Shown in pieces: positions 8,434-54,097 of a stretch of DNA of 64,000 nt (positions are counted from its first letter, which is position 1; each line of letters opens with the position of its first letter). Source of the DNA: an uncultured Bacteroidales bacterium (GTDB taxonomy: Bacteria; Bacteroidota; Bacteroidia; Bacteroidales; UBA12077). The position numbers were made by a program, and so were the translations under genes. The notes below the pieces were generated by a model. It made no database searches, was not told where the DNA came from, and was given only the letters and a program-made list of their open reading frames with translations. Location: the NCBI GenBank assembly GCA_964585385.1, contig CAZPDP010000011.1, positions 1,086 through 65,085 of the forward strand, given 5' to 3'.

Positions 8434-8476
8434 ACCCCATTAATTTAAAGGCAAAATTAGAAGAAAATTCTTCAAG

Positions 8477-8513: not shown

Positions 8514-8536
8514 CATTTTAAATCATCTAAATCATA

Positions 8537-9748: not shown

Positions 9749-9760
9749 CGTTTTCTTGTT

Positions 9761-9868
9761 TTAGTGAATTAAATAATCATGAATGTAAAATCGATTTGCC
9801 TGATAGTTAAAACACCTTTGCCAGGGAAATAAAATTTTTTCCCACCATTGTTGAAGTTGCAGATTCAT
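9761..9868 (-). CDS. Second Trp-rich leader ORF upstream of stand-alone trpB (MNLQLQQWWEKILFPWQRCFNYQANRFYIHDYLIH)
   Basis: Hand-translated. WW plus a third W; starts 22 nt after the attenuator U-tract and stops 12 nt before the trpB ATG. Confidence 0.6.
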   Translation of the reverse strand: MNLQLQQWWEKILFPWQRCFNYQANRFYIHDYLIH

Positions 9869-9890
9869 TTTTAATTATTTAGTTGTAAAT

Positions 9891-9926
9891 AAAAAAAAAG
9901 CCGCAGGCTTTCACCTGCGGCTTTTT
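9891..9926 (-). terminator. Attenuator terminator in the trpB leader
   Basis: Minus strand reads AAAAAGCCGCAGG-TGAAAG-CCTGCGGC-TTTTTTTTT. Confidence 0.85.
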
Positions 9927-9946
9927 AAAAACATAAATATTTCAGG

Positions 9947-10015
9947 TTAATTGCCTTTCATTAACTTATTATCTTTAAGCCACCACCAGTTTCTATGTAT
10001 AAATCGTATGATCAT
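9947..10015 (-). CDS. trpL: Trp leader peptide (MIIRFIHRNWWWLKDNKLMKGN)
   Basis: Hand-translated. Three consecutive TGG codons. AGGC..ACCTG at the end of the ORF can pair with CAGGT..GCCT of the terminator, forming an antiterminator. Confidence 0.85.
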   Translation of the reverse strand: MIIRFIHRNWWWLKDNKLMKGN

Positions 10016-37530: not shown

Positions 37531-38694
37531 TTAACTTGCTTTTACTTTAGCTCTTTTCAGGCGTTTCTTAATATTACTTTCCACCACATAGTGATCGATA
37601 AGTGGAGCAAACACGTTCATCAGAAGAATAGCCAGCATAACTCCCTCGGGATAGGCAGGATTTACAACACGGATAAGAATAGCAAGGAAGCCGATTAGAA
37701 ATCCGTAAATGTATTTCCCTCTTCTTGTTTGAGCTGCAGATACAGGGTCTGTAGCCATAAATACTGCCCCAAATGCAAATCCACCCATTATAAGATGCTC
37801 CCATGCAGGAATTTCCATAAAGGGATTAACAGCAAATGCATTTAAAATCAACCCCATAACTAGTCCCCCGATAAAAGTAGAAAGCATAATTCTCCAGCTA
37901 CCCACGCCGGTCAGGAGTAATATTACTGCACCTATCAGAACTGCCAGAGCAGATGTCTCACCAATGGACCCCGGTATAAATCCGAAAAACATATCCGAAG
38001 CAGAGGGGATACTCTCAACACTTCCTTCTGCTGCCAGACCTAGTGGTGTTGCCCCTGAAAAACCATCAACAATTCCTTCTCCATTCATTAATCCGTGGGT
38101 CCAGACCTGGTTCCCTGACATATAAGCCGGGTAAGCAAAAAACAGGAATGCCCTTGCTGTAAGTGCGGGATTCAAAATGTTCATCCCTGTTCCACCAAAT
38201 ACCTCTTTACCAAAAATCACAGCAAAAGCAGTAGCTGTAGCCACCATCCAAAGGGGCACATCTACGGGAAGAACCAGGGGAATTAACATGCCGGACACAA
38301 GAAATCCTTCATTTACCTCATGTCCTCTTATTTCTGCAAATAGAAACTCGATGGCCAGACCTGTAACATAAGAAACTATTATTATCGGCAGTACAAGTTT
38401 AAACCCTTCCCAGAAAGTCTGCAACAACGCCCCTTCCTGCCCGGTAGCCAGAAAATGCTGATGTCCTGTATTCCACATTCCAAAAAGAAGGGCAGGAATC
38501 AAAGAAATGACTACCAGACTCATAGTCCTTTTCATATCAATGGCATCTCTTATGTGAGCCCCTTGTGTTGTGGTCTTATTGGGTACAAAAAGAAAGGTTT
38601 CAAATGCCTCAAAAGATCTTGAGAACTTCTCGTACTTTCCCCCTTTCTCAAAATGGGGCTTAATATTATCGACTATTTTACGTAAAGACTTCAT
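37531..38694 (-). CDS. nqrB: Na+-NQR subunit B
   Basis: 'KEVFGGTG', FMN site 'SGATPL', 'GSIGETS', 'FMATDPVS'. Confidence 0.96.
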   Translation of the reverse strand: MKSLRKIVDNIKPHFEKGGKYEKFSRSFEAFETFLFVPNKTTTQGAHIRDAIDMKRTMSLVVISLIPALLFGMWNTGHQHFLATGQEGALLQTFWEGFKLVLPIIIVSYVTGLAIEFLFAEIRGHEVNEGFLVSGMLIPLVLPVDVPLWMVATATAFAVIFGKEVFGGTGMNILNPALTARAFLFFAYPAYMSGNQVWTHGLMNGEGIVDGFSGATPLGLAAEGSVESIPSASDMFFGFIPGSIGETSALAVLIGAVILLLTGVGSWRIMLSTFIGGLVMGLILNAFAVNPFMEIPAWEHLIMGGFAFGAVFMATDPVSAAQTRRGKYIYGFLIGFLAILIRVVNPAYPEGVMLAILLMNVFAPLIDHYVVESNIKKRLKRAKVKAS

Positions 38695-38714
38695 TCGTAA
38701 TATTTTTTATTTGA

Positions 38715-40067
38715 TTAACTCATTTCCTCCATCATCAGATTCAGTCCTTTTCGGATATATGACTGAACAGGAATTTTGGAGGTACAAACAAATTCGGGTA
38801 AAGCAAAATCCTCCTCATCCACTTCATAAATACCCAACTTCTCCATAAGCTCTATATCTTCAATCATAATTGCTTTTATCAACTGTACCGGATAAATATC
38901 CATAGGCAGCACATTTTCATATTCTCCACTCATAACATAAGCTCTTTCTCCACCTTTAAGGTTTGTATCTATCCTGTACTTCCTGTTTGGCTGTAGCCAG
39001 GAGAAAAATGTTCTTGATGTGCTGAATTTATGAAATCCCGGCTTTGCCCATCCCAGCATTTCGTAGTAGTTCCCTTCAGGAATAACGGTAACCTGGTTAT
39101 CGAAGAAACCTGTATACCCTTCGCTTGATATCTTTTTGCCAGTTAAAACATTACCACTTATATATCGTAAATTTCCCTCTGCAACATTGTCTTTGATGAG
39201 GTTTTCTATACTTGCTCCCCGAAGGATACGGTAATATTGGGGGCGTTTGACTTCAGAGCCGGTTAAAGCAATGATTTTTGAAGCGTCGTACTTCCCATGA
39301 TCAAATAATCTTCCAATCGTTAAAATATCCTGTGGATATATATACCAAACTTTTTCCCCTGCATTTATCGGATCAATTTTATTAATTTGAATCCCTATAT
39401 TACCTGCCGGATGAGGTCCAACAAAGTGGTTGAGCTGTACTCCTCTTGCATTGCTAAAAACTTTTGAAATAGGATATTTAGCATTCACATTCAAATGAAT
39501 AGTCCCCGAGGTAAGTTTTTTAAGTGCATCCAGGCCTTTTTGGAAATTCTGCTCTTCTCCTTTAACAATCATATCGTTATCAGGAGCCAAAGGAGATGAA
39601 TCGAACGCAGAAATAAAAATAGCCTTCGGATCATCTTCAGGATTAGCTACTACGGAATAGGGCCTTTGTCTGATGAATGACCATAACCCGGATTTAACGA
39701 GTTTATCTGCAATTTCTTCTCTTGATAAGTCATTCGGATCAGCCTTTCCAAAGTCTTCGTATTCGATATTGGAGTCTGCTTCGATGACGACTTCCAATAT
39801 TTTTCTTCTTTCCCCTCTCGTTACTTCAATAATTTTACCGCTCACAGGCGACGGGATCTGCGAATGCGGAATAAGTTTATTATAGAACAGAGGAGTTCCT
39901 GATTTTACTCTATCTCCTTCCTTTTTCAGAAGCTTGGTTCTCATCCATTTGAAATCAATGGGCTTAACACCATAAAATCTCGCCGGTTCGGCTTTGCTAA
40001 TGACCTTTTCAGCCTCACCTTTCAGAGGAATATCCAGCCCTTTTTTTATCTTAATAACCTTAGACAT
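38715..40067 (-). CDS. nqrA: Na+-NQR subunit A
   Basis: 'IKIKKGLDIPLKG', 'PSPVSG', 'GPHPAGN', 'EEDFALPEFVCTSKI'. Confidence 0.96.
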   Translation of the reverse strand: MSKVIKIKKGLDIPLKGEAEKVISKAEPARFYGVKPIDFKWMRTKLLKKEGDRVKSGTPLFYNKLIPHSQIPSPVSGKIIEVTRGERRKILEVVIEADSNIEYEDFGKADPNDLSREEIADKLVKSGLWSFIRQRPYSVVANPEDDPKAIFISAFDSSPLAPDNDMIVKGEEQNFQKGLDALKKLTSGTIHLNVNAKYPISKVFSNARGVQLNHFVGPHPAGNIGIQINKIDPINAGEKVWYIYPQDILTIGRLFDHGKYDASKIIALTGSEVKRPQYYRILRGASIENLIKDNVAEGNLRYISGNVLTGKKISSEGYTGFFDNQVTVIPEGNYYEMLGWAKPGFHKFSTSRTFFSWLQPNRKYRIDTNLKGGERAYVMSGEYENVLPMDIYPVQLIKAIMIEDIELMEKLGIYEVDEEDFALPEFVCTSKIPVQSYIRKGLNLMMEEMS

Positions 40068-40091
40068 GATTGGTTTTTTGAAGATTTAAAA

Positions 40092-40122
40092 CAAAAATAT
40101 ATATTATTTAATTATTACCAAA
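40092..40122 (-). promoter_or_regulatory. Putative nqr promoter (-7 and -33 boxes)
   Basis: Minus-strand TATTTTTG at 40099-40092 with a TTTG about 20 nt upstream. Confidence 0.45.
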
Positions 40123-40204
40123 AAGTTTGACAAATGATACAAATAACAAAATTGAAATGTTTACTGATTTTCATTGTATTTAATTATCTAAATAGTTCAC
40201 TTTG

Positions 40205-40894
40205 TTATTTCAATAACGTCATTTCTTTCAGAGCCGATTTATCTTTAATAATTAACACACCCTTTTTTTCCTCTATTATATCATTTTTAATGAAGTGCTG
40301 CAATGTTCTTACCACACTCATGGTCGACATTCCGCTAAATTCAGCCAGGTCTTTTCGTGAAAGATTAAGATTGAAACGAATATTCTGATAGACGTTATCA
40401 GACAGATGCAAAAGGCTATCGGCCAACCTGCCATGTGTTTGTTTCAGATTCAGGCTAATCAGTTTATTTCTAATCTGATCCATTTCTTCATTAAGGGTTT
40501 GGATGACCGAAACAGCAAAATTGTTGTTATCTCTGATTATCTGTTGAATAACTTTCTTATCAATGGCACAAACTCTTGAATCTGAAACAGCTGCCACTGA
40601 AAAATGAAACTTCTCTGTATAAAAAAGGGAGGATAGCCCGATTAATAAACCCTTAGGATATATACTGTATATTGTGGTACTGTTGTCTTCATTTTCCCTG
40701 TAGACCTTTACAATACCTTCTTTAACATAAAGGATATGAGTAAGAAATGTACCCTGCTTTTCAATGGTTTCGCCTTTCTTGTAGCTTACCTGAACCTTAC
40801 TTTCACTTGTCATAATCAATTCATTCTGATTAAGCTCATGAAAGCAAGAGGATTTAAAGTCGCAATCTGTACAGGTAGTTCGAATTTCTGCCAT
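40205..40894 (-). CDS. Crp/Fnr family regulator with an FNR-like N-terminal Cys cluster
   Basis: CTDCDFKSSC (C-x2-C-x5-C), cNMP-binding-fold region, C-terminal HTH 'LSRKDLAEFSGMSTMSVVRTL'. ATG start at 40894; the ORF track starts at 40906. Confidence 0.88.
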   Translation of the reverse strand: MAEIRTTCTDCDFKSSCFHELNQNELIMTSESKVQVSYKKGETIEKQGTFLTHILYVKEGIVKVYRENEDNSTTIYSIYPKGLLIGLSSLFYTEKFHFSVAAVSDSRVCAIDKKVIQQIIRDNNNFAVSVIQTLNEEMDQIRNKLISLNLKQTHGRLADSLLHLSDNVYQNIRFNLNLSRKDLAEFSGMSTMSVVRTLQHFIKNDIIEEKKGVLIIKDKSALKEMTLLK

Positions 40895-41053
40895 TTCATT
40901 CAACAACTTTGGGTGTACAAATATAAATAAATCTATTTTTTTATCGACTTATTTATATATTTATTTTTCCATATTCATATATTTTTATAGCTCCCCGCGG
41001 CCCATTTTTATTTTTTAGAATATATCTATTTTTTATGGTTGGAATTCAATTAG

Positions 41054-41108: not shown

Positions 41109-41603
41109 ATGAAATTTAAAAATATATTCGTTTCCTTCTTAATCGGTTTGGGGTTCTGGATTTTACTTAATAATACTTTTGACCCGCTGATTCTTGCAAT
41201 TGGAGCAGGTTTATCCCTTTTACTTTCGCTAATATTTTGCGCAAGATGTGATGTATTTTCTGAGTTAAAACTCACTCCAATAGCATTATTATACACGATT
41301 ATCTATATTCTGATTTTTCTTTTTGAACTTGTTAAGTCCAACCTGGATGTTGCACGTCGTGTTCTAACCCCTTCACTACCTATCAACCCAGGCATTGTAG
41401 AAGTAAAGACCAAGCTGAAATCAAAAATGGGCAGACTGATTCTGGCTAATTCCATAACACTTACCCCTGGTACATTAACAATAGATATAAAAGAAGACAC
41501 CCTATACATTCACTGGATTGACGTTCAGACAGAAGATATTAAGGGTGCTACCGAGCAGATTGTAAGAAAATTTGAAAAATATTTAGAAAAAATATATGGT
41601 TAA
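41109..41603 (+). CDS. mbxA: Mrp-type subunit MnhE / MbxA
   Basis: 'PINPGIVEVKTKL', 'LANSITLTPGTLT', 'LYIHWID'. Confidence 0.85.
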   Translation: MKFKNIFVSFLIGLGFWILLNNTFDPLILAIGAGLSLLLSLIFCARCDVFSELKLTPIALLYTIIYILIFLFELVKSNLDVARRVLTPSLPINPGIVEVKTKLKSKMGRLILANSITLTPGTLTIDIKEDTLYIHWIDVQTEDIKGATEQIVRKFEKYLEKIYG

Positions 41604-41856
41604 CACAATACTATCGATAGCTCTGGGAATAATGCTTTTATCCATTATTCTCTCTTTGATAAGGTTCATAAAAGGACCTTGTTATACCGACCGGGTCATT
41701 GCTTTTGATGTAATGACTATCTCCTCCCTGGCCATCATTGCAGGCATTGCTTATCTGAGCGGAAGAATTATTTACCTGGATATTGCTATGGTTTACGGAA
41801 TTTTAAGTTTCCTGGGAGTATTAATTGTTGCACGATATCTGGAAAAAGGACTATAA
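41596..41856 (+). CDS. mbxB: MnhF / MbxB
   Basis: 'RFIKGPCYTDRVIAFD', three TM helices, 'ARYLE'. Confidence 0.85.
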   Translation: MVNTILSIALGIMLLSIILSLIRFIKGPCYTDRVIAFDVMTISSLAIIAGIAYLSGRIIYLDIAMVYGILSFLGVLIVARYLEKGL

Positions 41857-41859
41857 ATT

Positions 41860-42222
41860 ATGAATACATTAGCTGTTATCGGATCTTTTATTACCCTGGC
41901 CGGTTCAATATTCCTCCTGCTGGGTTCTATTGGACTTCTGAGGATGCCGGATTGTTTCAACCGAATCCAGGCTGGTACAAAAGCATCTACTCTCGGAACC
42001 ATTTTATCTTTTACCGGTATTTTACTTATCGTTCCCGGTTGGTGGGGAAAATTACTGATATTGATTATTTCAGTAATGATAACCAACCCGGTTTCTTCTC
42101 ATGTTTTGGCAAGGGCGTCGCATTATATAAGGGTACCCCTCACAAAAGCACTGTTAGTGGATAAATACCAGGAGGACGAGCAGTATATTTCTGTTGATGA
42201 TCAAAAAAATAAAAAAGAATGA
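41860..42222 (+). CDS. mbxC: MnhG / MbxC
   Basis: 'GLLRMPDCFNRIQAGTKASTLG', 'TNPVSSHVLARA'. Confidence 0.85.
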   Translation: MNTLAVIGSFITLAGSIFLLLGSIGLLRMPDCFNRIQAGTKASTLGTILSFTGILLIVPGWWGKLLILIISVMITNPVSSHVLARASHYIRVPLTKALLVDKYQEDEQYISVDDQKNKKE

Positions 42223-42473
42223 TACTAAAAATTATTGCCTTAGTCATTGCTTTAGCCATCATTCTAATGGCCATTATAGCAGTTCAGAACAAAAAACTTA
42301 TCGTCGCCATCATCGCAGCTGGTGTGGTGAGTTTGTTTGCCTCGGTCTTCTATCTTCTCATGTCAGCACCTGACGTAGCCATGACAGAGGCAGCCATTGG
42401 CAGTGGATTATCCACAATAATCTTTTTCTATGTATTGAATAAAATCAAAAAAGACAGACTGGACAATGTTTAA
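42219..42473 (+). CDS. mbxD: DUF4040 / MbxD (MrpA C-terminal fragment equivalent)
   Basis: 'APDVAMTEAAIGSG'. Confidence 0.8.
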   Translation: MILKIIALVIALAIILMAIIAVQNKKLIVAIIAAGVVSLFASVFYLLMSAPDVAMTEAAIGSGLSTIIFFYVLNKIKKDRLDNV

Positions 42474-43170
42474 GAATATATTTGTATTTGTTGTACTCAT
42501 TGGGCTGGCTTTCATTCTTTCTAAATCATACGTGATTTTGCAGCCTGAAGAAGGTTTAAATGAAGTCGCCACCCGCTATGCTGAAAAAGGACCTGAAGAA
42601 GTCGGGGCAGCTAACCTGGTAACAGCAGTAATTGTTACATATCGGGGTTTAGATACCCTGGGTGAAGTAACCATATTGTTCATTACAGCAGCTATTATCG
42701 GTTTTTTCCTCAAGGTAAAGCTTGAAGATGAGATAGAATCAAGAAGTTTAAGAAAGACAAGTGAAATTCTTGAGACCGCTGCAAAAGTAATTACACCTGT
42801 AATTTTTCTTTTTGGTATTTATGTATTTATTAATGGTCATCTTACCCCGGGAGGCGGTTTTCAGGGAGGCGCCATCATTGCATCCGGACTGGTATTGATG
42901 TTGCTTGCCAATCCTAAAAAAGAAGTCAATCATAAGATCATATCCTTTATTGAATCCATATCCGGTTTTTCATTCATCATACTTGGAATCCTGGGAATCT
43001 TCCTGGCAGGCGGATTCCTGGATAATAATTTCATCAGCCTCGGTAAATTTGGGACGCTCCTTAGCGCAGGCGCAATTCCGGTAATTTACATTTTTGTCGG
43101 ATTAAAGGTTGGATCCGAATTGTCAGGCATTGTAAGTAACCTACAGGAAACACAGAAAGAAAAAATATAA
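42466..43170 (+). CDS. MnhB / MbxE-F type subunit
   Basis: 'ANLVTAVIVTYRGLDTLGEV', 'GHLTPGGGFQGG'. Confidence 0.85.
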   Translation: MFKNIFVFVVLIGLAFILSKSYVILQPEEGLNEVATRYAEKGPEEVGAANLVTAVIVTYRGLDTLGEVTILFITAAIIGFFLKVKLEDEIESRSLRKTSEILETAAKVITPVIFLFGIYVFINGHLTPGGGFQGGAIIASGLVLMLLANPKKEVNHKIISFIESISGFSFIILGILGIFLAGGFLDNNFISLGKFGTLLSAGAIPVIYIFVGLKVGSELSGIVSNLQETQKEKI

Positions 43171-43541
43171 TGGAACAAATCAGTTTAGCACATATTGGCT
43201 TTGTTTTAGGGATTGCAATTATACTAATCGGCCTTTGGGCCATTCTGACAAAGAAAAACATTATCAAAATCATTGTAGGTTTTTCTTTGTTCGACACAGG
43301 AACACATATAGTAATGGTATCCATTGGTTATGTTCAGGGTAAAACAGCTCCGATACTGGATAAAGCCGTTAACCTTAAAAACGCCGCACAGGAAATTGTC
43401 GATCCTGTTCCCCAGGCGCTGGTACTCACAGCAATTGTCATCGGACTGGGTATTACTGCACTTATGCTTGCTTATGCTTTAAGACTTTATCAAAGAAGAA
43501 AAACATTGGAAATTAAAAAATACAGCGATCTAAAATGGTAG
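43170..43541 (+). CDS. mbxG: MnhC / MbxG (NuoK-like)
   Basis: 'KNIIKIIVG', 'DPVPQALVLTAIVIG'. Confidence 0.85.
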   Translation: MEQISLAHIGFVLGIAIILIGLWAILTKKNIIKIIVGFSLFDTGTHIVMVSIGYVQGKTAPILDKAVNLKNAAQEIVDPVPQALVLTAIVIGLGITALMLAYALRLYQRRKTLEIKKYSDLKW

Positions 43542-46500
43542 AACCTATTTATATTGTCGGATCAGGCCTTGGTATTGCTTTTCTGCTTGGTATCATAAAA
43601 AAAGCAGGTAAAAATACTTCAGGTATCCTAATGCTTTTGACCATTGCTTTTATGACCTTTGTATCGGTTCAGTGGCTCTGGTCTGTCATATTTGCGGGTA
43701 ATGCTCCCCATTACACTTTCACAGCAGGATTCAAACCTCCTTTCTCGATTAACCTATTAATGGGAAGGCATGAAGCTATTCTTACCACTATGATTAATTT
43801 TTTGGGACTCCTTGGGGGATTATACCTCTGGGATAAATTCAAAAAAGAAGGAGTCAATTCCATGATTGTTTTCCTGGTGATAATTATGGGACTGAATGTT
43901 ATCATAATGACCCGTGATATTTTCAACCTGTTTGTATTTCTTGAAGTAGCGAGTATAGGTGTTGCAGGGTTGGTGGTTCTGGAAAGAAATACCAAATCGC
44001 TCTCAGCAGGATTTAAATATATGATTGCAACCAGTATAATTGCTGGTATCCTGCTTCTGGGAATCATTTTCTCATATAAACTAGCCGGTTCACTTAATAT
44101 AGATGATTTGGTAAAATCCAACCTCTGGTTCGCTAAAGGAGGCACAACCACTGTCTTTCTGATTCTCATAGCCGTTATATTTGAATTAAAACCCTTTCCT
44201 GCTAATGGCTGGGGACTCGACCTTTATGAAGGAGCAAATCCCGGTTTAGCTGCCCTGATCTCGGGTGGAATTGCAACAGCTTCTTTATTCATACTTTATA
44301 AATTAATGCATCTTGGAGGAGAAAACTGGTATATTCCTATTGCAACCACAGGCATGATAACTTTTATTGGCTCCAACCTGCTGGGTATTAATCAAAAAAA
44401 CAGCACCCGTTTGCTTGGTTATTCATCAGTGGGGCAGATTGGTCTTATCATGATGATTCTTGGCTTTTCCAGCATGCTGGGCAACAAATTTGAATTCATA
44501 GCCTTTGGAATTCTCATAAGTCACTTTCTTGCTAAAGCAGGCTTATTCTGGATTGCCGGCTTACTCAAAAACACAAAAATTCAAAACTGGGGTGTAATAA
44601 GAAACAGGCCATTCATGCTTTTCCTGATGGGCACCTTTATCCTGGCCCTTATCGGAATGCCACCTTTCCCATCATTCTTTGGCAAATGGGAATTCATTAT
44701 GAAACTGGCTGATAATAACATGCTCGTTTGGGTTATTGGAATATTAACAGGCTCGGTACTTGAAGCAGTTTACCTGTTTCGCTGGTTTGGATATGCAGCA
44801 AAACTCGAACCAGAAGAAGAAAACAAAATTTCGTTTCCCATACACAAAGTTATACCCATACTTTTTGCAGGCCTTGGGCTTTATATTTTCAGTTATTTCA
44901 GTGCAGAATGGATTGGCTTAAGTTTTTCCGCTGCTTTTTACATTCCGTTAATTTTGATAATTATTCTCTTTGTACTGGATTTTCTGCCTGTTTATATCAA
45001 AAATACCATTGGTATAGCAGGACTGGGATACTATACCTACACCCTGTTTTTTAATGATTTGATACCCGGAGGCGATATTCTGCGTATCGTGTTTGCCATC
45101 CTATTCCTGGCCGGTGGACTTATCATGCTTATTCCCGGGTATACCCAAAAAGGCAAACGAAAAGGGTTTTATCCTTTGGTAATTCTTATGTTTGCAGGAT
45201 TAGGCGGTTTAATTCAGGCAGAAAATACCTTGCAGTTTTTCTTTGCCTGGGAAATTATGACCATCGCCTCCTACTTCCTAATAATGCGCGGAAAACAGGC
45301 CATGAAAGCCTCTCTGAATTACATCCTTTTCTCAATTAGCGGGGCTTATTTCATGCTTATGGGCTTTGCTATGGCCTTTCAGGCACATGAAAGTTTCACA
45401 CTCGAAATCCTCAACAATACAACAGGCCTCACATCCTGGATATTTCTGCTGGTAGCCATTGGTTTTATGTTTAAAATTGCCACCATTGGAATTCACATCT
45501 GGCTTCCCGGCTCTTATACTGAAGCCGAAGATGATGTGACACCCATGATATCTGCAATACTCATCAAATCAGGAGTTTTTGGTTTTCTGATATTTATGAT
45601 TTCGGGCGGGAATTTTGAACTGGCAAATATTAACATCCCCTATGTTTTAGGGTGGTTAGGCGCAATAAGTGCCGTAATCGGAAATATGCTGGCTATTTAC
45701 CAGGAAGATGCGAAAAAACTGATAGCCTATTCCAGTATCGGTGTTATGGGATATATACTCTTTGCCATTTCCATGATGACCGGTTTGGGATGGCTTACAG
45801 CCGTGACCTACGGAATGCTTCATTTCTTGTATAAAGGCTTGTTGTTCCTGGCTGTTGCCGGTGTCATATACCGAACCAGAACCCGTAAATTCTATGAGAT
45901 GGGTGGTCTGATAAAGAAAATGCCGATTTCGTTTATTGCGGTATTAATCGGTATCATTACACTTGCGGGTATGCCCCCACTAGCAGGTTTTGCAGGAAAA
46001 TGGCTGTTCTACAACGCAGTGATTTTAAAAGGCTGGTATATACAGGGAACACTGGTATTCTTTGCAGGAATTGTCGCATTTTTATATTGTTTCAAACTCA
46101 TTCACAACATATTTCTTGGCCCCATTAAAGATGAACACCGCAGAATAAAAGAAACATCAGTATGGTGGCTTATCCCCCAGGTTTTGCTTATCATCGTGAT
46201 TATGGCATTTTCGGTACAACCCAGAATCTTTATGGAACCGGTCGGAGCCTACCTGGCCAACTATTTCCCGGGTGAAACGCTGCAATGGCAAGGAACCAAA
46301 GCCTCCACAAGTCTCGGATACTGGAATGCAACTCAAATCATGTATATAGTCGGCGGTCTGTTTGCAGTCCTTTTTGGAGCCTTGTTCTTTTTAAGCAGAA
46401 AAGCACAAAAAGTGAAACAATTCAATATGGTCTACCAGGCTGAAAGACCTTTCAGGCCAGAAACCACGCATGTGGCTTACAATATGTTTGCACATTACAA

Positions 46501-46681
46501 TAAAGCGCTTGGAATATTCAGTGCGCCTCGTGTAACAAATTTCTGGAACGGGTTTTCAAACTTAATCCATGATACCGGAAATCATATTCGTCAGCTATAT
46601 TCGGGTAATGGGCAAGCTTATGCACTGCATATCGTCCTGTATTTTATTGTATTTTATGTATTACTAAACGGAGGATTCTAA
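43535..46681 (+). CDS. Fused double antiporter-like subunit (MnhD/NuoN-like twice; MbxH-MbxH')
   Basis: 1048 aa with two proton-translocating modules: 'DIFNLFVFLEVAS...KPFPANGW' and 'TLQFFFAWEIMT...KIATIGIHIWLP'. Confidence 0.85.
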   Translation: MVEPIYIVGSGLGIAFLLGIIKKAGKNTSGILMLLTIAFMTFVSVQWLWSVIFAGNAPHYTFTAGFKPPFSINLLMGRHEAILTTMINFLGLLGGLYLWDKFKKEGVNSMIVFLVIIMGLNVIIMTRDIFNLFVFLEVASIGVAGLVVLERNTKSLSAGFKYMIATSIIAGILLLGIIFSYKLAGSLNIDDLVKSNLWFAKGGTTTVFLILIAVIFELKPFPANGWGLDLYEGANPGLAALISGGIATASLFILYKLMHLGGENWYIPIATTGMITFIGSNLLGINQKNSTRLLGYSSVGQIGLIMMILGFSSMLGNKFEFIAFGILISHFLAKAGLFWIAGLLKNTKIQNWGVIRNRPFMLFLMGTFILALIGMPPFPSFFGKWEFIMKLADNNMLVWVIGILTGSVLEAVYLFRWFGYAAKLEPEEENKISFPIHKVIPILFAGLGLYIFSYFSAEWIGLSFSAAFYIPLILIIILFVLDFLPVYIKNTIGIAGLGYYTYTLFFNDLIPGGDILRIVFAILFLAGGLIMLIPGYTQKGKRKGFYPLVILMFAGLGGLIQAENTLQFFFAWEIMTIASYFLIMRGKQAMKASLNYILFSISGAYFMLMGFAMAFQAHESFTLEILNNTTGLTSWIFLLVAIGFMFKIATIGIHIWLPGSYTEAEDDVTPMISAILIKSGVFGFLIFMISGGNFELANINIPYVLGWLGAISAVIGNMLAIYQEDAKKLIAYSSIGVMGYILFAISMMTGLGWLTAVTYGMLHFLYKGLLFLAVAGVIYRTRTRKFYEMGGLIKKMPISFIAVLIGIITLAGMPPLAGFAGKWLFYNAVILKGWYIQGTLVFFAGIVAFLYCFKLIHNIFLGPIKDEHRRIKETSVWWLIPQVLLIIVIMAFSVQPRIFMEPVGAYLANYFPGETLQWQGTKASTSLGYWNATQIMYIVGGLFAVLFGALFFLSRKAQKVKQFNMVYQAERPFRPETTHVAYNMFAHYNKALGIFSAPRVTNFWNGFSNLIHDTGNHIRQLYSGNGQAYALHIVLYFIVFYVLLNGGF

Positions 46682-46691
46682 ATATCGAACT

Positions 46692-47585
46692 ATGAAGATA
46701 CTGTACGTTTTATTAGGATTATTCATCATCATCAATTACGGATTGCTTAAAACAGGACTAATCCGGAGAATTACAGCGCGTGTAGGAAAACGTATAGGCG
46801 TACCCATATATCAGCCTTATATTGACCTTATCAAGACTTATGGCATTCGATCCCAGGTAACGCATGGCGTGATGTTCTACCTGGGTCCTGTTTTCAGACT
46901 GGCGGGCGGGATCGGAATATTCCTGTTCATGCCATTGATATATGGCTCTGATATGTTTAGTAATTTTTCATTCGCCGGTGACCTGATACTCATCCTGTAC
47001 TTCATCTTTTTTGGTATGCTGGGTATGGCGCTTGGCGCTGGTGAAGGCGGGCACCCCTACTCTATTGTCGGTATCAGCAGAGGATTGTCTCAATTCACAA
47101 CAGTTGAGATTCCCCTCACCCTGGCTATCATTGCCATAGCAGTTCAGTATCAAAGCTTATCAATAACCGAGATTGTAGCGGCCCAGCAGGGAGGTATAGA
47201 AAACTGGACCCTCGTAACCAATCCACTTGCTACTATTGCAGCCTTCTTTTCTTTCCTGGGAATGATGATGTATTCTCCCTTTAATGTGGTGAATGCTCCA
47301 CAGGAAAATCCTATTGGCCCCCCAACTGAATATCAGTCTACATTCCTCGGAATGCTCCAAACCAACAGGGCCATCCTTAGTGTTATGGAATCAATATTAT
47401 TTGTAAATCTTTTTTATGGTGGCGCAACAAACTGGATTGAACTTGTTGTAAAAGCCTTTATAGTCTATTTCCCTGCAATATTCATCGGTACAGTTTTCCC
47501 CAGATTCAGGGTTGATCAGTCTATTAAATGGTTTATTCTTATACCTACATTGCTGGGATTATTAGCTATTTTGTTTGCAGCTTAA
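46692..47585 (+). CDS. mbxM: NuoH-like membrane anchor / MbxM
   Basis: 'RRITARVGKRIGVPIYQPYIDLIK', 'PFNVVNAPQE', 'FPRFRVDQ'. Confidence 0.82.
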   Translation: MKILYVLLGLFIIINYGLLKTGLIRRITARVGKRIGVPIYQPYIDLIKTYGIRSQVTHGVMFYLGPVFRLAGGIGIFLFMPLIYGSDMFSNFSFAGDLILILYFIFFGMLGMALGAGEGGHPYSIVGISRGLSQFTTVEIPLTLAIIAIAVQYQSLSITEIVAAQQGGIENWTLVTNPLATIAAFFSFLGMMMYSPFNVVNAPQENPIGPPTEYQSTFLGMLQTNRAILSVMESILFVNLFYGGATNWIELVVKAFIVYFPAIFIGTVFPRFRVDQSIKWFILIPTLLGLLAILFAA

Positions 47586-47598
47586 AGTTAAATGAATT

Positions 47599-48270
47599 AT
47601 GAGTGATAACAACAAAAAAGACAAATTCTTAAAGCCTGAAAATGAGAAAAGATGGGTAACCAGCCCGGATGGAGAGAGATTTGAAGTGGATCCCATGCAG
47701 GATTATTTCTGTGATGCCCGGCCTAAAGAACACCGGCCGGCATACAGCAAAGTCGTTGAGAAATTCCTGAACTGGGCAAGAGCGGAATCCTTATGGGTAT
47801 TAGGATTTGGAACCGGTTGCGGTAGCATTGAAATTTATCCGCTTATGACACCCCGGTTTGATGCTTACCGCTTTGGCGTTCAGCAGAGACCCACTCCAAG
47901 ACAATCCAACGTACTCATTATTTCAGGATACCTGAGTGTAAAAACATTGAAAAGGGCAATCAGAACGTATGAACAGATGCAAAACCCCAAATTCGTTATG
48001 GGTTTGGGAAGTTGCACCATCAACGGCGGAATGTACTGGGACAGCTACAACACAATCAACCGGCTGGATTACTACATGCCTGTCGATGTTTACGTTGCAG
48101 GTTGTATGCCCAGGCCAGAAGCCTTACTCGCTGGTTTTGAACAGTTAAAAAAACGCATAAAAGAAGGAAGAGGCGAAGGAGCCAATGACTACGCAAGGAA
48201 CTTCGACTGGTACAAAGGCAACCAGAAAAAAATTATTAAAGACTGGAATATGCCGGATTACAACTGGTAA
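47599..48270 (+). CDS. mbxJ: NuoB-like Fe-S subunit / MbxJ
   Basis: 'FGTGCGSIE', 'GSCTINGGMYWDSYN', 'AGCMPRPEA'; three cluster Cys, no tandem CC. Confidence 0.85.
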   Translation: MSDNNKKDKFLKPENEKRWVTSPDGERFEVDPMQDYFCDARPKEHRPAYSKVVEKFLNWARAESLWVLGFGTGCGSIEIYPLMTPRFDAYRFGVQQRPTPRQSNVLIISGYLSVKTLKRAIRTYEQMQNPKFVMGLGSCTINGGMYWDSYNTINRLDYYMPVDVYVAGCMPRPEALLAGFEQLKKRIKEGRGEGANDYARNFDWYKGNQKKIIKDWNMPDYNW

Positions 48271-48328
48271 TTATAGAATTTAGAATTATGATTGAAAGCC
48301 AAAAGTTCGTAATTAAAAAAGAAGTAGT

Positions 48329-48865
48329 ATGGACAACGAAATAATTAAAAACATAAAAAATCACTTCGAAATCATAGATATAACAGAACAAAGAGATAAC
48401 CTGACTTTTGTGAGTGTTAAAAAAGATCAGACTGTGCCTTTGGTAACTTATTTGCGGGATTACGAAGGTTTTTCGCATTTTGTTCTGCTCACTGCTGTTG
48501 ACTGGATTGAAGAGGATAAATTTCAGCTAACGTATATTCTCAACCACCCTGAGAAAAAATTAGATATTGGAGTCAGAACAGGAATACCCCGTGAAAATTC
48601 AGTAATGGAATCAGCTCACCATTTATGGGCAGATATCGCCACGCATCAGCGCGAACTGAAGGAAAACTTCGGAATTGATTTTCCGGGTAGCCCGAGAGTT
48701 GATGAGGAGTTTCTCCTGGAGGGATGGGATAACACACCCCCCATGCGAAGAGAATTTGATACAAAAAAGTATTCAGAAGAAACATATTTTCCCCGACCGG
48801 GACGTGAAACGAACGATCCGGCTGAACATATGAAAAAAAAGCTATATCCTGATGAAGAAAAATAA
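48329..48865 (+). CDS. mbxK: NuoC-like subunit / MbxK
   Basis: 'LLTAVDW', 'HQRELKENFGIDFPGSP', 'LEGWDNTPPMRR'. Confidence 0.85.
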   Translation: MDNEIIKNIKNHFEIIDITEQRDNLTFVSVKKDQTVPLVTYLRDYEGFSHFVLLTAVDWIEEDKFQLTYILNHPEKKLDIGVRTGIPRENSVMESAHHLWADIATHQRELKENFGIDFPGSPRVDEEFLLEGWDNTPPMRREFDTKKYSEETYFPRPGRETNDPAEHMKKKLYPDEEK

Positions 48866-50045
48866 ACTGTTCCACTGGAATTCGGACAGAAGCGCTTTCC
48901 CGGATGTTGGAGAAGACGGCAAACTTAATATTGACCTGGATTCACAAAAATATGTCAAGGTCTGGCACGGCCCCAATCACCCCGGTGTAACCGGTAATAT
49001 GTCGCTTGAACTCACCATAAGCGGCGATGAAGTACTTGAGGCCAAAACACACGTGGGATATCTTCACCGGGGATTCGAAAAGCTCTATGAAAGAAGAAGC
49101 TACATTCAGTGTTTTCCAACTGTTGTTCGAATGTGTGTTCCCGAACCCGATTCCAACGAATACAACCTGGCTGCAGGCATTGAAGAACTGGCCGGGCTGG
49201 AAATTCCTGAAGCAGCCAAATGGCACAGAACCCTGGCGCTTGAAATGTCCCGGTTGCAGTCGTTGTTGCGAATAATGCCCGCTCAGGCCGGTACTACAGG
49301 ACTCGGACTTGGTGTACAATGGGGTGTTTACCTTCGAGATCTCATCCTCGACAGATTTGAAGAATTAACAGGTGGCAGAATATATCATATGTACATGATT
49401 CCCGGTGGTGTCAGGGGATTAATACCGGAAGGTTTTAAAGATCGGCTTGAAGAAAATCTCAAAGAAATAGATGAGTTTATTATCAATATCAAAAAATTGG
49501 TCCTTGATAATTCTGTGTTCAAAAAGCGTACGGTAGGAAGAGGAGTTATTCCTGGAGACTGGATTGACAAATATAGTGTGGTAGGACCCAATGCACGGGC
49601 TGCAGGAGTAAACAGGGATATCCGTATCGACTATCCTTATCTGAAGTACGATGAACTGGACATTGAACCATTCACAGCAGAGGATTCCGATATTTATACC
49701 CGCACCTACACCCGCTGGATGGATATTCAGACCACTGTGGACCTGTTGAGACAAATTATGGACAAGCTTCCGGAAAAGGGAGAAATAAGAACAAAAACAC
49801 CTAACGTTCTGCACTGGGAGATTCCCAAGGGTGAAACTTACATCCGGTCCGAATCCTCAAGAGGAGAATATGGATTCTACATGGTTTCAGACGGCAGCAA
49901 GTACCCCAGACGTATTAACCTGAAAGGTCCGAGCTATTCTCATGCAGTAGCCCTGCTTGAAAAAATACTGATAAATGCCAATATAGCCGACATAGGGGCG
50001 ATTATGGTTTCATTGGCAACGTGCCCGCCGGAGATTGAGCGGTGA
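48852..50045 (+). CDS. mbxL: NuoD-like large subunit / MbxL; lacks complete NiFe-binding CxxC motifs
   Basis: 'HGPNHPGVTG', 'GYLHRGFEK'. The hydrogenase L1 and L2 motifs are reduced to RMCVPE and TCPPE. Confidence 0.85.
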   Translation: MKKNKLFHWNSDRSAFPDVGEDGKLNIDLDSQKYVKVWHGPNHPGVTGNMSLELTISGDEVLEAKTHVGYLHRGFEKLYERRSYIQCFPTVVRMCVPEPDSNEYNLAAGIEELAGLEIPEAAKWHRTLALEMSRLQSLLRIMPAQAGTTGLGLGVQWGVYLRDLILDRFEELTGGRIYHMYMIPGGVRGLIPEGFKDRLEENLKEIDEFIINIKKLVLDNSVFKKRTVGRGVIPGDWIDKYSVVGPNARAAGVNRDIRIDYPYLKYDELDIEPFTAEDSDIYTRTYTRWMDIQTTVDLLRQIMDKLPEKGEIRTKTPNVLHWEIPKGETYIRSESSRGEYGFYMVSDGSKYPRRINLKGPSYSHAVALLEKILINANIADIGAIMVSLATCPPEIER

Positions 50046-50050
50046 TATGT

Positions 50051-50139
50051 GTTTAAGGTTTAAGATTAAAAAAAGAGAATGTAAGTTGTCAGATAACAGA
50101 CACAAGATACCGGATACAAGATACATGATGCCTGATAAC
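50051..50139. repeat. Upstream heptamer arrays: (GTTTAAG)2 and about 7 x NGATACN
   Basis: AGATAAC AGACACA AGATACC GGATACA AGATACA TGATGCC TGATAAC at 50091-50139. Confidence 0.8.
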
Positions 50140-50215
50140 AGGATATCGAAGCATCGAAATGTTAGAATAGGATAATAAAAAGATAAAGCTTTCATTACAA
50201 TACTAAACTAATCAT

Positions 50216-50593
50216 ATGAGCTATAAGAAACTGGAAATTTGGAGTCTTGCCAGAGAACTGGTTGTAGACATACATAAAATGACTTTAAATGAACTTCCGA
50301 AATTTGAAATGTATGAAACAGCTTCCCAGATAAGAAGGTCTATTAAATCTGTTAAAGCCAATATAGTCGAAGGTTATGGAAGAAGAGAATACAAACAGGA
50401 ATTCATCAGATTTTTGACATTTGCAATAGCATCAAATGATGAAACGATTGATCATTTAGAAACTTTATATGAAACTGAATCTTTAAAAAATAAAAAGCTA
50501 TATGATGAAATACACCAGAAGTTAAATCTACTGAGTAAAAAATTGTTAAAGTTTCATGAAGTAGTAAATATCAATCACAAAACCCATAGATAA
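50216..50593 (+). CDS. Four-helix-bundle protein (23S rRNA IVS protein / TIGR02436-like family)
   Basis: '[21 protein letters not shown]', '[30 protein letters not shown]', '[15 protein letters not shown]'. Confidence 0.88.
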
Positions 50594-50668
50594 AATCCGA
50601 TATCCGGTATCTGGTATCCCGTATCTGGTATCCGAAATCAATATTCGAAATTAAACTTCAAACTTTTA
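50592..50668. repeat. Downstream heptamer arrays, reverse complement of the upstream arrays
   Basis: GATATCC GGTATCT GGTATCC CGTATCT GGTATCC at 50599-50633; TAAACTTCAAAC at 50652-50663. Confidence 0.8.
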
Positions 50669-50679
50669 ACGAAAATACT

Positions 50680-52455
50680 ATGAACCTAAAAGACATACTA
50701 TCCCCCTTCTCAGCCTGGAAAAACTTATTGAAGGAACCGGTTACTGTTAAGGATCCAATCAATGAGAGACCTGGTGCACCAAGATACAGGGGATTTCACA
50801 AGAACGACATTGAAAAATGCATTGGTTGCGGAACCTGTGAAGAAATCTGTGAGAATGAGGCTATTGACCTTGTTGAAGTAGCCAGCATAGAAACTACCGA
50901 TGGTGACAGTGGACTCAGACCAAGAGTTGATTATGGACGATGCTGCTGGTGTGCTCTTTGCGTGGATGTTTGCCCCACCGGCTCACTCACCATGTCCAAT
51001 GAATATATATGGATTGATGAAAATCCTGATGTATTTCGTTATACTCCAGGCATCGAAAGCAAAGAATGGGACAACAACCAACTGGGATGGACCAAACCGG
51101 AGTACCCGTTGTATGAACCTGAGCGTGTTGATATGGTAGAGATGGACGCCGATGAACGCAAAAGTTCATTCCTTGAAATAGTCAGAGGTTATTCACGGGA
51201 ACAGGCTGAAAAAGAAGCTGACCGGTGCATTCAGTGCGGTATATGTGTTGCTACATGTCCTGCTCACATGGATATTCCGGGATATATAAAATCCGTTCGT
51301 GAAGGGGATATGGAAAAAGGACTTCATCTGCTTTATGATACCAACCCGCTTCCGGAAATCTGCGGGAGAGTTTGTACGCACAGATGTGAAACGGTTTGTG
51401 CTGTCGGACATGAAGGCGATCCGCTGGCTATTCGCTGGCTCAAGAGGTACATTGCGGATGCTGTACCTTTCGAGCAATACAAGGAAATTCTCGGCGTAAC
51501 AGATATTGAAGAAAACGGCAAAAAAGTGGGCATCATCGGAGCTGGTCCGGCAGGACTGGCAACTGCATATTACCTGAGAATAAAAGGCTTTGACGTCACT
51601 ATTTACGAAGCCAAATCCAAAGGCGGAGGCATGACCATGTATGGTATTCCCAAATACAGGCTCCCGCAAAATATGCTTGATTCTGAAATCGGTTTCATCG
51701 AAGATATTGGAGTGAACATTCATTACGAAACAAGAGTTGGTGAAGACATCAGTTTTGAAGAAATCTACGATAAGTTCGATGCAGTATTCGTAGGTATTGG
51801 ATTCCAACACCCCTATACACTTGCCATTGAAGGTGAAGACCTGAAAGGTTCTCTGCAGGCGATTGATTTCCTGGACAAGATTAATAAGAGCGAAAAGGTA
51901 GACATTGGAAAGAAAACAGCCATTATCGGCGGGGGCAATGTGGCCATGGATGCCGCCAGGGTGGCAAGAAGACTTGATACGGATGTAACAGTCCTGTACC
52001 GGCGAAGGGTACAAGATATGCCGGCAGACGAAGAAGAAATCGAAGGAGCTTACGATGAAGGAGTTAAAATTGAACCTCAAACAATACCGGTTAAGATTAT
52101 TCCGGATGAAAAAGGAAACGTGAAGGCCATTCAATACCTCCGGGCAGAACTGGTACAACAGGAGGAGGGAAAAAGACCCAGGCCTGTACCCATTGAAGGA
52201 AGCGAAGAAACACTGGAAGTGGACAGTGTGATCGGTGCCATCGGACAGGAAGCCAAATACACCTTCCTGCCGGAAAAATTCGAGAAACAACTTGAACTAA
52301 AACGCGGAAGAATGGTTGTAGATAAAAACAACAAAACTACAATCCATAAAATATATGCAGGTGGAGACGCTGTCAACAGAACGGCAGATGCTATCAGTGC
52401 AATTGCAGATGGACACCGGGCAGCAAATGGAATTGAAAAAATGCTATTAAAATAA
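50680..52455 (+). CDS. NuoI-like 2x[4Fe-4S] subunit (MbxN) fused to a GltD/SudA-like FAD-NAD(P)H oxidoreductase
   Basis: [11 protein letters not shown] and [12 protein letters not shown]; then [50 protein letters not shown]. Confidence 0.88.
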
Positions 52456-52461
52456 AAGCTT

Positions 52462-52923
52462 ATGAATGAAAATTTTAGCAATCCAAGGGAAGTTATTGAC
52501 TTCGCCATTGAGCGCGAACAAGAAGCACACGATTTCTATCTGAACCTTAAAGAACATGTTAAATCCAAGGAACTACAGGATACATTAAACCAATTCGCCA
52601 TGGAAGAATTGGGTCATAAAAAGAAACTCCAGAGCATTATAGAGAAAACGGAAGAATATGGCTTTACCAAAGATGAGGTTACACATCTAAAAATCGGTGA
52701 TTATCTTGTTGACAAGACACCTACTGCTGACATGTCTTACCAGGATGTACTGATCATATCCATGAAAAAAGAAAAGAAATCCTATCTTCTTTACACCGAT
52801 CTGGCTCAAAGAGTAAACAATCCTGAGCTGAAAAAGATATTCAGTAACCTGGCCCAGGAAGAAGCGAGCCATAAATTAAGGTTTGAATTGGAATATGACG
52901 AACATATTCTTTCCGACAATTAA
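52462..52923 (+). CDS. Ferritin-like / rubrerythrin-family di-iron protein
   Basis: 'AIEREQEAHDFY', 'EELGH', 'EKKSYLLY', 'EEASH'; no rubredoxin domain. Confidence 0.82.
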   Translation: MNENFSNPREVIDFAIEREQEAHDFYLNLKEHVKSKELQDTLNQFAMEELGHKKKLQSIIEKTEEYGFTKDEVTHLKIGDYLVDKTPTADMSYQDVLIISMKKEKKSYLLYTDLAQRVNNPELKKIFSNLAQEEASHKLRFELEYDEHILSDN

Positions 52924-52978
52924 AAAAAAAGCCTGTTGTTGAAAGTCAATGTTCAATCAGGAACTTCCGGCAACAGGC
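52922..52978. terminator. Hairpin between convergent genes; U-tract on the minus strand
   Basis: A-run, GCCTGTTG...CAACAGGC. Confidence 0.55.
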
Positions 52979-52999
52979 AAATTCATATTTTCGATCAAC

Positions 53000-54097
53000 T
53001 TATTTTACTTCGTACTTCTTGTCAGCCACCAGGTTTACCAATCTGAAGGCCCTTTTTCTGAGTCCGAATACTGCCCGTTGATTGGACAGAACGATCACAT
53101 CTATATTTTCGGCGGGAAGTTTTAAAACAATATGGGTATTGCCATATCCAATACCTCCCTGGTAAAGAAATTTTCTTCCTTTGTTAAAAGCCTTTCTCCA
53201 ACCATAACCATAAAATTCCTTTGCTCCCCTTATGAAATTTAAGCGTTTAGCATGACTTAATGTGTTACTTTTCAGTATTTTTCCTGTATCCCAGCTTGCC
53301 ATCCATTTTTTCATATCTTCAAGGGTAGAATAAATACCTGTTACACCCCGCAGATATTCCTTACTCATTTCCTCTTCTACTTTTTCATAATCAGACTCTT
53401 CAGCAGACCCGACATTTTGGTATCCCCGGGCCTTATTTTTTATCTTATAAAACCAACCTCCTTTGTAGACTTCTGAATCCTGCATATTTAAGGGTTCAAA
53501 GATTTGGGATGTAATAAAATTCCTGTAATTCTCTCCGGATACTTTTTCAATGATTAAAGTAAGTAATGCATAATTGGCCGGGTTGTTAGCAGCCCGTGCA
53601 CCTGTCTTAAAAGCCAGTTTTTCATGCCGGTTCAGAAAATCTATAACATCTTCAGTTACAGAAATATCTTTTTTTCCTTCAGCCATATTAAGATAAGGCA
53701 AACCTGAAACATCCCGGAGAAGTTCATCAATCGTTATCTCTTTGGCATAGTCAGGCATTCCTTTTATATGACTGCTAACTTTTTCCTTATAATTCAGCTT
53801 ACCCTGATCTTTCAAAATTAAAATACCGGTAGCTGTAAACTGCTGGGTCAGAGAACCCAGGTTAAATTTTGTTGAAGAACTTACAGGTGTTTTCTCTTCC
53901 AGGTTGGCATAACCATAATTTTCCTGGATAACGGTTTCTTTTCCTTTCACCAGTACAATACTGAAGCCGGGAGATTGTTCTTCAAGATAATTCCTGAAAA
54001 TCTTTCGTGCTTTAATGCTTAAACTATCCTGAGAATAAGATAAAGTAACAGAAATAAAAAAGATTAGCAGACCGGCCAGTATATTTTTCAAACGCAT
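53000..54097 (-). CDS. Beta-lactamase/AmpC-fold serine-hydrolase family protein, secreted, with degenerate catalytic motifs
   Basis: Signal peptide, 'YGYANLE', 'FNLGSLTQQFTA', 'IIEKVSG', 'IFEPLNM', 'YGYGW'. Confidence 0.8.
   Translation of the reverse strand: MRLKNILAGLLIFFISVTLSYSQDSLSIKARKIFRNYLEEQSPGFSIVLVKGKETVIQENYGYANLEEKTPVSSSTKFNLGSLTQQFTATGILILKDQGKLNYKEKVSSHIKGMPDYAKEITIDELLRDVSGLPYLNMAEGKKDISVTEDVIDFLNRHEKLAFKTGARAANNPANYALLTLIIEKVSGENYRNFITSQIFEPLNMQDSEVYKGGWFYKIKNKARGYQNVGSAEESDYEKVEEEMSKEYLRGVTGIYSTLEDMKKWMASWDTGKILKSNTLSHAKRLNFIRGAKEFYGYGWRKAFNKGRKFLYQGGIGYGNTHIVLKLPAENIDVIVLSNQRAVFGLRKRAFRLVNLVADKKYEVK

Follow-up and report, generated by a model that had tools for sequence, protein, structure and literature searches.

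Can a complex of the type of the Pyrococcus furiosus MBS draw its electrons directly from a pyridine nucleotide? The question is raised by one gene in a 64,000-nucleotide stretch of DNA, hereafter the window, from an uncultured Bacteroidales bacterium (GTDB lineage UBA12077; GenBank assembly GCA_964585385.1, contig CAZPDP010000011.1, positions 1,086 to 65,085). The gene, at 50680-52455 on the + strand, is the last core gene of an mbx operon and joins an N subunit, MbxN, to a flavoprotein of the GltD/NfnB kind. In the P. furiosus complex the donor is ferredoxin, served by no subunits other than J, K, L and N, which contain three [4Fe-4S] clusters (PMC7684303), and this agrees with the starting point of the original prediction that MBS is fed by ferredoxin and has no flavin module. 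Here we ask what the added module would do. The reading we prefer, for which we judge the case to be evenly balanced, is that the fusion is the NADPH input module of an ion-pumping, Mrp-based, MBS-like reductase.

Results

An N subunit extended by a flavoprotein module

The region 50680-52455 is a single uninterrupted open reading frame on the + strand, encoding 591 residues. Its parts are as follows.

50680..52455, + strand, stop included: mbxN::gltD/nfnB-like fusion gene; homologs span 100% of its length
50680..51039, + strand: NuoI/MbsN-type domain, residues 1-120, with two CxxCxxCxxxC(P) motifs at 50818-50976
51040..51159, + strand: linker, residues 121-160, conserved in alignments of homologs
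51160..51462, + strand: Fer4_20 domain with two [4Fe-4S] sites, residues 161-261; Cys ligands C183-C240 at 51226-51399
51442-51444, + strand: codon of K255, aligned with the cluster-ligating Lys170 of StnC and Glu of NfnB (PMC10482914)
51523..52413, + strand: FAD- and NAD(P)H-binding domains (Pyr_redox_2), residues 282-578 (PMC6405883)
51538-51555, + strand: GAGPAG, residues 287-292
51658-51660, + strand: R327, the equivalent of NfnB R187
51928-51951, + strand: GGGNVAMD, residues 417-424
51997-52008, + strand: YRRR, residues 440-443 (LYRRR, 439-443)

Profile searches placed both halves in the same protein. By Pfam, residues 43-105 are an Fer4 dicluster, residues 161-261 are Fer4_20, the domain with two [4Fe-4S] clusters that begins GltD, DPD and NfnB, and residues 282-578 are Pyr_redox_2; the NuoI/FpoI models of NCBIfam matched residues 5-120. 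One NCBIfam model, NF010590, aligned end to end (protein 2-589 against profile 7-606 of 611) with 741-745 bits and an E-value of 8e-223, a score below the curated equivalog cut-off of 946 bits. In the PDB, residues 6-120 found subunit N of MBS first (6u8y_N, E 9e-26), with weaker matches to NuoI of complex I (4e-16) and to MBH N (2e-10), and residues 150-589 matched Thermotoga maritima NfnB (4ylf_B, 9e-97) and P. furiosus NfnI-L (5jca_L, 4e-96), the bifurcating subunits of the NADH-dependent ferredoxin:NADP+ oxidoreductase.

The putative cofactor ligands are fully conserved. The N-terminal domain carries C47xxC50xxC53xxxC57 and C88xxC91xxC94xxxC98P, in register with MbsN, and the Fer4_20 domain carries C183/186/189/193 and C228/232/236/240; these 16 cysteines, K255 and R327 were identical in 89 of 89 aligned homologs. 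The matches to the cofactor motifs are far beyond chance. Within the linker G124 and R149 are invariant, as is, very nearly, F119 just upstream. An AlphaFold2 model built from 70 homologs (pLDDT 80.6, pTM 0.76) was confident in the NfnB-like flavoprotein half, which superposed on NfnI-L (5jca_L) with a template-modelling (TM) score of 0.90 and a root-mean-square deviation of 2.1 Å; the linker reached a pLDDT of about 50-76.

These results confirm, at the level of sequence, that the 591-residue protein is an MbxN-type N subunit extended by an NfnB/GltD-type module with predicted FAD and NAD(P)H sites. The original prediction had described a NuoI-like domain with two [4Fe-4S] clusters followed, in one frame, by an iron-sulfur/FAD/NAD(P) oxidoreductase; Pfam, NCBIfam and the PDB bear this out, and in the alignment of homologs the motifs it named lie where it had placed them. 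Compared with the stand-alone, flavin-free, ferredoxin-accepting MbsN of P. furiosus (208 residues), the fusion has 470 extra residues, with two [4Fe-4S] sites, a FAD site and an NAD(P)H site.

MBS-type signatures in the operon

The operon to which the gene belongs is a colinear Mrp-NuoHBCD cluster in the order mbxABCDFGHH'MJKLN, co-directional over 41109-52923.

41109..50045, + strand: MnhE, MrpF, MnhG, MbhD, MnhB(+MbhE), NuoK-like, double MrpD, and NuoH/B/C/D-like subunits
43535-46681, + strand: fused double MrpD/NuoN-like antiporter (H and H'), 1048 residues
47599-48270, + strand: NuoB-like MbxJ, best PDB match 6u8y_J
48852-50045, + strand: NuoD-like MbxL, best PDB match 6u8y_L

Downstream of MrpD the subunits run NuoH-like MbxM, NuoB-like MbxJ, NuoC-like MbxK and NuoD-like MbxL. 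The P. furiosus MBS shares this gene order (A-B-C-D-F-G-H/H'-M-J-K-L-N) and gave the best PDB match for each of N, J and L. The window differs from it in that H and H' are fused and in a Gly where MbsJ has C25. Among relatives, the best tblastn match to the double MrpD begins at either the first module or the second, pointing to the existence of split as well as fused forms of H/H'.

Could the flavoprotein be a soluble enzyme merely encoded beside the mbx genes? In this genome a four-helix-bundle gene does separate the fusion from mbxL, the two being 634 nucleotides apart (50046-50679). Against this, no separate N subunit is encoded, although the complex needs one, the N-terminal domain is MbsN-like, and a scan of 49900-53100 found no + strand terminator-like site between mbxL and the fusion gene. 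Nor is the neighbourhood peculiar to this genome. We examined 80 loci, the best 80 of at least 595 confirmed relatives, and each of the 80 covers residues 1 to about 590; wherever DNA upstream was available, in 79 of them, the fusion gene comes straight after the NuoD-like gene within a colinear operon of 12 genes. We consider a soluble bystander scarcely credible. In the same scanned interval, candidate sigma-70 promoters did not rise above shuffled controls, with a consensus that does not cover Bacteroidota promoters.

The two subunits that would form the active site bear the MBS signature, a three-Cys proximal cluster and no quinone-binding His/Tyr pair, as judged from their alignments. MbxJ matched MbsJ (6u8y_J, 1e-60) ahead of complex I (1e-36) and MBH (2e-26), and it holds exactly the three ligating cysteines of MbsJ (the equivalents of C28, C93 and C123), which are essentially invariant across relatives; its Gly falls at C25, a non-ligating and dispensable residue in MbsJ, where the three cysteines ligate the catalytic proximal cluster (PMC7684303). 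The proximal [4Fe-4S] cluster of MbxJ is thus predicted to be held by three Cys, as in MBS. MbxL found MbsL first (6u8y_L, 3e-76) and keeps the two vestigial NiFe cysteines, equivalents of C85 and C385, as C95 (RMCVPEPD) and C391 (ATCPPEIER).

These signatures bear on a second possibility, that the complex serves as an NAD(P)H:menaquinone oxidoreductase, analogous to complex I but with its N-module in a single polypeptide. The potential span from NAD(P)H to quinone would power pumping well, the quinone-dependent Nqr is encoded next door, and the chamber entrances of MBS and complex I are equally wide (PMC7684303). However, the quinone ligands H38 and Y87 of Nqo4 are replaced in MbxL by T47 and V96, with Thr in 78 of 79 relatives and Val in 81 of 81, MbxJ is without the tandem Cys of NuoB, and both J and L resemble their MBS counterparts much more than those of complex I. 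A quinone acceptor seems to us quite improbable.

A putative non-bifurcating NADPH wire

The closest solved relatives of the flavoprotein half, NfnB and NfnI-L (4YLF, 5JCA), are bifurcating. The window protein shares 38-41% identity with them (Foldseek; TM 0.87-0.90, normalised to the target), together with the Cys ligands, the FAD and NADPH motifs, YRR(T/R) and the R187 equivalent. One could therefore imagine a bifurcating FAD: one electron would run down the iron-sulfur chain into the membrane arm, and a further partner, for example ferredoxin or the rubrerythrin-like protein, would take the second. The invariant R327 would fit this, as R187 of NfnB is hydrogen-bonded to the flavin N5 (PMC6405883), and a di-iron protein is sometimes co-encoded. 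Yet StnC of the Sporomusa StnABC transhydrogenase keeps the same Arg without a contact to N5 (PMC10482914), just 12 of 80 loci have the rubrerythrin gene, and no NfnA-like partner ([2Fe-2S] plus FAD) is encoded in the operon or its flanks.

The ligand of the FAD-proximal cluster points the same way. In bifurcating NfnB it is a Glu, whereas non-bifurcating StnC has Lys170 at this position (PMC10482914). In pairwise alignments K255 of the window protein (RWLKRY) lined up with K170 of StnC and with the Glu that NfnB and NfnI-L have here (GRLERF/GKLERF). The features of the GltD/StnC type are all present: Fer4_20 with two [4Fe-4S] sites, GxGxxG for FAD, GxGxxA for NADPH and the Lys at K170. Since Lys255 is StnC-like and invariant in the family, the module looks like a plain wire from NADPH to iron-sulfur clusters, and flavin bifurcation was down-weighted on this account, to a level that we would call very remote.

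The GltD-like domain of StnC (8OH5) is likewise a non-bifurcating NADPH wire with a longer iron-sulfur chain and the Lys (PMC10482914), but its fusion partner is a NuoG/FdhF-like domain, and in place of a membrane complex it supplies a soluble, HydBC-like bifurcating core. What sets the window protein apart from NfnB and NfnI-L is Lys255 for Glu, the missing NfnA partner and the N-terminal NuoI-type fusion.

Which nucleotide would the module use? The basic YRRR after GxGxxA makes a preference for NADP(H), as originally proposed, plausible: NADPH-binding NfnB and NfnI-L have YRRT there, and the predicted contacts to the 2'-phosphate follow from motif comparison with these homologs. A 93-row alignment (92 extracted copies and the window) had YRRR in 81 rows. 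The other 12, copies from the genus and family of the window and from two others (one being a duplicate G411 copy), had (S/A)LE(T/S/D) with a six-residue insertion and a Glu at the end of beta-2, for which the general Rossmann rule predicts NADH. This natural contrast between YRRR and the SLE type supports YRRR as a marker of NADP(H).

Direction of electron flow and the acceptor

If the fusion is the NADPH input module of an MBS-like reductase, NADPH would bind the second Rossmann domain (GGGNVAMD to YRRR) and pass a hydride to FAD, which would act as a plain relay, not as a bifurcating site. FAD would give up single electrons in sequence to the proximal, Lys255-ligated [4Fe-4S] cluster, from which they would travel to the distal Fer4_20 cluster, on through both [4Fe-4S] clusters of MbxN and finally to the proximal, three-Cys cluster of MbxJ, a path whose inter-cluster distances we infer. 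This last cluster would lie at the chamber formed by MbxJ, L and M, where a hydrophobic acceptor, most likely polysulfide or sulfane sulfur as in the P. furiosus MBS, would be reduced; the reduction would drive Na+/H+ movement through the Mrp module. A subunit of this kind would be expected to co-purify with the membrane arm.

Among the other genes of the genome are those for Rnf (RnfC, 598 bits), pyruvate:ferredoxin oxidoreductase (PFOR, 1942 bits) and Nqr. With the ferredoxin:NAD+ and NADH:quinone links thus covered, an NADPH-linked role would otherwise be unfilled, and an MBS-type reductase tied to NADPH would give the cell a further electron sink.

Electrons may instead leave through the module. 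The complex would then be a ferredoxin:NAD(P)+ oxidoreductase, as in the older Mbx model, or the ion gradient would push electrons from the chamber side, for example from sulfide, to NADP+. A gltD-like subunit has been proposed explicitly as the site of NAD(P)+ reduction (PMC4758237), and GltD/NfnB modules work reversibly in Nfn (PMC6405883). The genome produces reduced ferredoxin through PFOR, and some carriers of the fusion are sulfur oxidisers in need of reverse electron flow. But coupling of the complex I type needs redox chemistry in the J/L/M chamber, and a route from ferredoxin through the N subunit to FAD would skip that chamber, in spite of the strict conservation of its subunits and of the three-Cys cluster. 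The fused domain would also probably cover the face of the N subunit that would receive ferredoxin, and Rnf already gives the cell ferredoxin:NAD+ coupling. We regard an output port as unlikely.

Several observations weigh against the NADPH-fed reductase itself. The span from NADPH to polysulfide is about 50-60 mV at standard potentials, and with so small a span ion pumping would be marginal unless ratios in vivo were favourable. This is a genuine weak point of the forward direction, and the complex may run in reverse or use another acceptor. The N-terminal iron-sulfur domain, through which the electrons would have to pass, was modelled with low confidence (pLDDT 47-72). The acceptor could differ between carrier lineages, some of which oxidise sulfur. 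The vestigial NiFe cysteines of MbxL vary in the family, the C385 equivalent being Tyr in 37 of 85 loci and the C85 equivalent Ala in 12 of 81, a frequent loss that fits the finding that these cysteines are not catalytic in P. furiosus mutants. Finally, the full-text literature that was searched yielded no biochemical study of any fused complex, be it of activity, flavin content or co-purification.

A widespread family with earlier records

The fusion is neither rare nor new. The protein database holds thousands of relatives, and 118 of the best 120 entries were full-length at 53-90% identity, the other two being the query itself and a 395-residue fragment. A scan of one genome per GTDB species gave at least 600 matching stretches, and 595 of these could be confirmed as relatives. 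The 80 verified loci come from at least nine phyla, among them Bacteroidota, Ignavibacteriota/Chlorobiota, Cloacimonadota, Spirochaetota, Calditrichota, Deferribacterota, Fidelibacterota and Pseudomonadota. By lineage, they belong to Bacteroidales, Marinilabiliaceae, Rikenellaceae, Lentimicrobiaceae, Prolixibacteraceae, Ignavibacteriales/Melioribacteraceae and 'Chlorobiota' bins, and further to Cloacimonadota, Spirochaetota, Calditrichaceae, Deferribacteres, Neomarinimicrobiota and Gammaproteobacteria; the sulfur oxidisers among the carriers include Thiosymbion and Thioalkalivibrio bins. Within the phylum of the window the fusion is patchy (3 of 401 evenly drawn genomes). At closer range, however, 10 of 16 genomes of the same genus carry it, as do 7 of 9 from the family's other genera and 2 of 16 from the order's other families. 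The window gene is an ordinary, intact member of a widespread bacterial family.

The architecture is catalogued as NF010590/PRK13984, a 'putative oxidoreductase' of the Thermotoga type, and Degli Esposti (2015) described mbx-like operons of Thermotoga and proteobacteria in which NuoI is replaced by a gltD-related flavoprotein interacting with NAD(P) and which often end with rubrerythrin (PMC4758237). Of 14 control genomes, T. maritima alone exceeded the NF010590 cut-off, which, with that paper, bears out indirectly the mention of similar fusions in Thermotogales in the original prediction. Its mbx operon is induced by S0 and thiosulfate and has been modelled with ferredoxin as the donor (PMC9431562). 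Like the Thermotoga-type protein, the window protein has the full-length two-module architecture and is encoded by the final gene of an mbx-like operon, with a rubrerythrin gene next; it differs in falling under the 946-bit cut-off and, probably, in the subtype of its flavoprotein half.

The original prediction stands in part. Its observation is confirmed, and there is support for its idea that the N subunit of an Mbx/MBS-type complex carries its own pyridine-nucleotide/flavin module. The novelty that it implied does not hold for a fusion that is catalogued, published, verified at no fewer than 80 loci and present in up to about 595 candidate species genomes. What is new is the Lys255 ligand position, the contrast between YRRR and SLE and the mosaic dinucleotide half.

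A mosaic dinucleotide-binding half

Three subtypes of the fusion occur in one GTDB genus: YRRR, as in the window, SLE(T/S), and SLED with 617 residues; two genomes (G411 and G412) carry two subtypes each. Window positions 51500-52455, covering the FAD/NAD(P) half, were compared with loci L097-L105, L090 and L094. Against SLE(T/S) copies from the same family, the identity of the window protein is 75-82% over the MbxN domain and 70-74% over Fer4_20 but drops to 30-37% over the NAD(P) domain and 32-34% over the C-terminal part. MbxL of the window is 63-74% identical to the same-family copies.

The trees of the two halves disagree as well. Residues 1-261 grouped the window with the same-family SLE copies (SH-aLRT 86), whereas for residues 275-591 this grouping was rejected (delta lnL 96, p-AU 0.004), in a test whose group was defined after the data had been seen and which involves long branches. 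When the halves of the protein were scored separately against the NF010590 hidden Markov model, the N-half scored 431 bits for the window and 427 for a same-family type-B copy, the C-half 290 and 470. The low C-half score indicates that the flavoprotein half of the window is of another subtype than NF010590 (YRRR versus the SLE type), and by these half-protein scores the Thermotoga-based model appears to resemble the SLE type in its C-half. In sequence terms the fusion gene is a mosaic, its divergence from the paralogs being limited to the dinucleotide-binding half, which would have been either exchanged or rapidly diverged. A selenocysteine codon, considered for type-C copies flagged '1 TGA', was ruled out, as their 617-residue frames have no internal stops.

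Neighbouring genes

Four further genes adjoin or interrupt the operon.

38715-40067, - strand: nqrA, divergent, upstream of the mbx operon, in the minus-strand stretch 37531-40906
40205-40906, - strand: Crp/FNR-family regulator, divergent, upstream of the mbx operon
50216..50593, + strand: four-helix-bundle gene of the 23S rRNA IVP family (PF05635/TIGR02436)
52462..52923, + strand: rubrerythrin/ferritin-like di-iron gene, lacking a rubredoxin domain (PF02915, 4e-15)

The four-helix-bundle gene, between mbxL and the fusion, is an insertion and lies outside the complex. Inverted GATAC/GTATC heptamer arrays flank it, and it is absent from the mbxL-fusion junction in 80 of 80 loci of other lineages. 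A copy with 70% identity occupies this junction in G411, of the same genus, beside a fusion gene that is only 51% identical, and a copy with 36% identity occupies the same junction in G422. The stretches concerned at relatives' loci are L097 (221-595) and L101 (3455-3688). At L041, a Candidatus Thiosymbion bin, the NuoD-like-to-fusion spacing (7790-10001) is about 1 kb above that of other loci and may mark another insertion at this junction.

The rubrerythrin-like gene begins 6 nucleotides past the fusion stop and is an optional last cistron; the loci in which it follows the fusion are from Bacteroidales, Spirochaetota, Gammaproteobacteria and Neomarinimicrobiota. With the regulator and nqrA adjoining the mbx operon, two ion-pumping complexes flank one regulator.

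Elsewhere in the genome two more GltD/NfnB-like modules lie in frames of 1495 and 1840 residues (C13:71205-74048 and C37:7345-10308), one of them adjoining a NuoF/RnfC-like SLBB match. They are probably a glutamate synthase and an Hnd/Stn-like enzyme.

Discussion

Beyond the role of the single subunit, a wider proposal can be made, which taken as a whole strikes us as possible but somewhat doubtful. Alongside complex I and Nqr, the fused complexes would make up a third class of ion pump that oxidises NAD(P)H: a reductase of the MBS type for sulfane sulfur, or for another hydrophobic acceptor, fed directly by a pyridine nucleotide. Their dinucleotide half would be an exchangeable cassette, YRRR with predicted use of NADPH or SLE with predicted use of NADH, set on the same iron-sulfur half and operon backbone within one Bacteroidales genus and family, with a swap point near the junction that repeatedly hosts the four-helix-bundle element.

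If the proposed chemistry is right, many anaerobes, including Bacteroidales, Ignavibacteria, Cloacimonadota, Spirochaetota and some sulfur-oxidising Gammaproteobacteria, could link the oxidation of NAD(P)H directly to an ion pump of the ancient MBS type. Models of fermentative and sulfur-cycle metabolism that assume a ferredoxin donor, such as that for T. maritima (PMC9431562), would gain an extra energy-conserving route. The family would also provide a natural experiment in which a complex-I-like machine has gained an NAD(P)H input module unlike NuoEFG.

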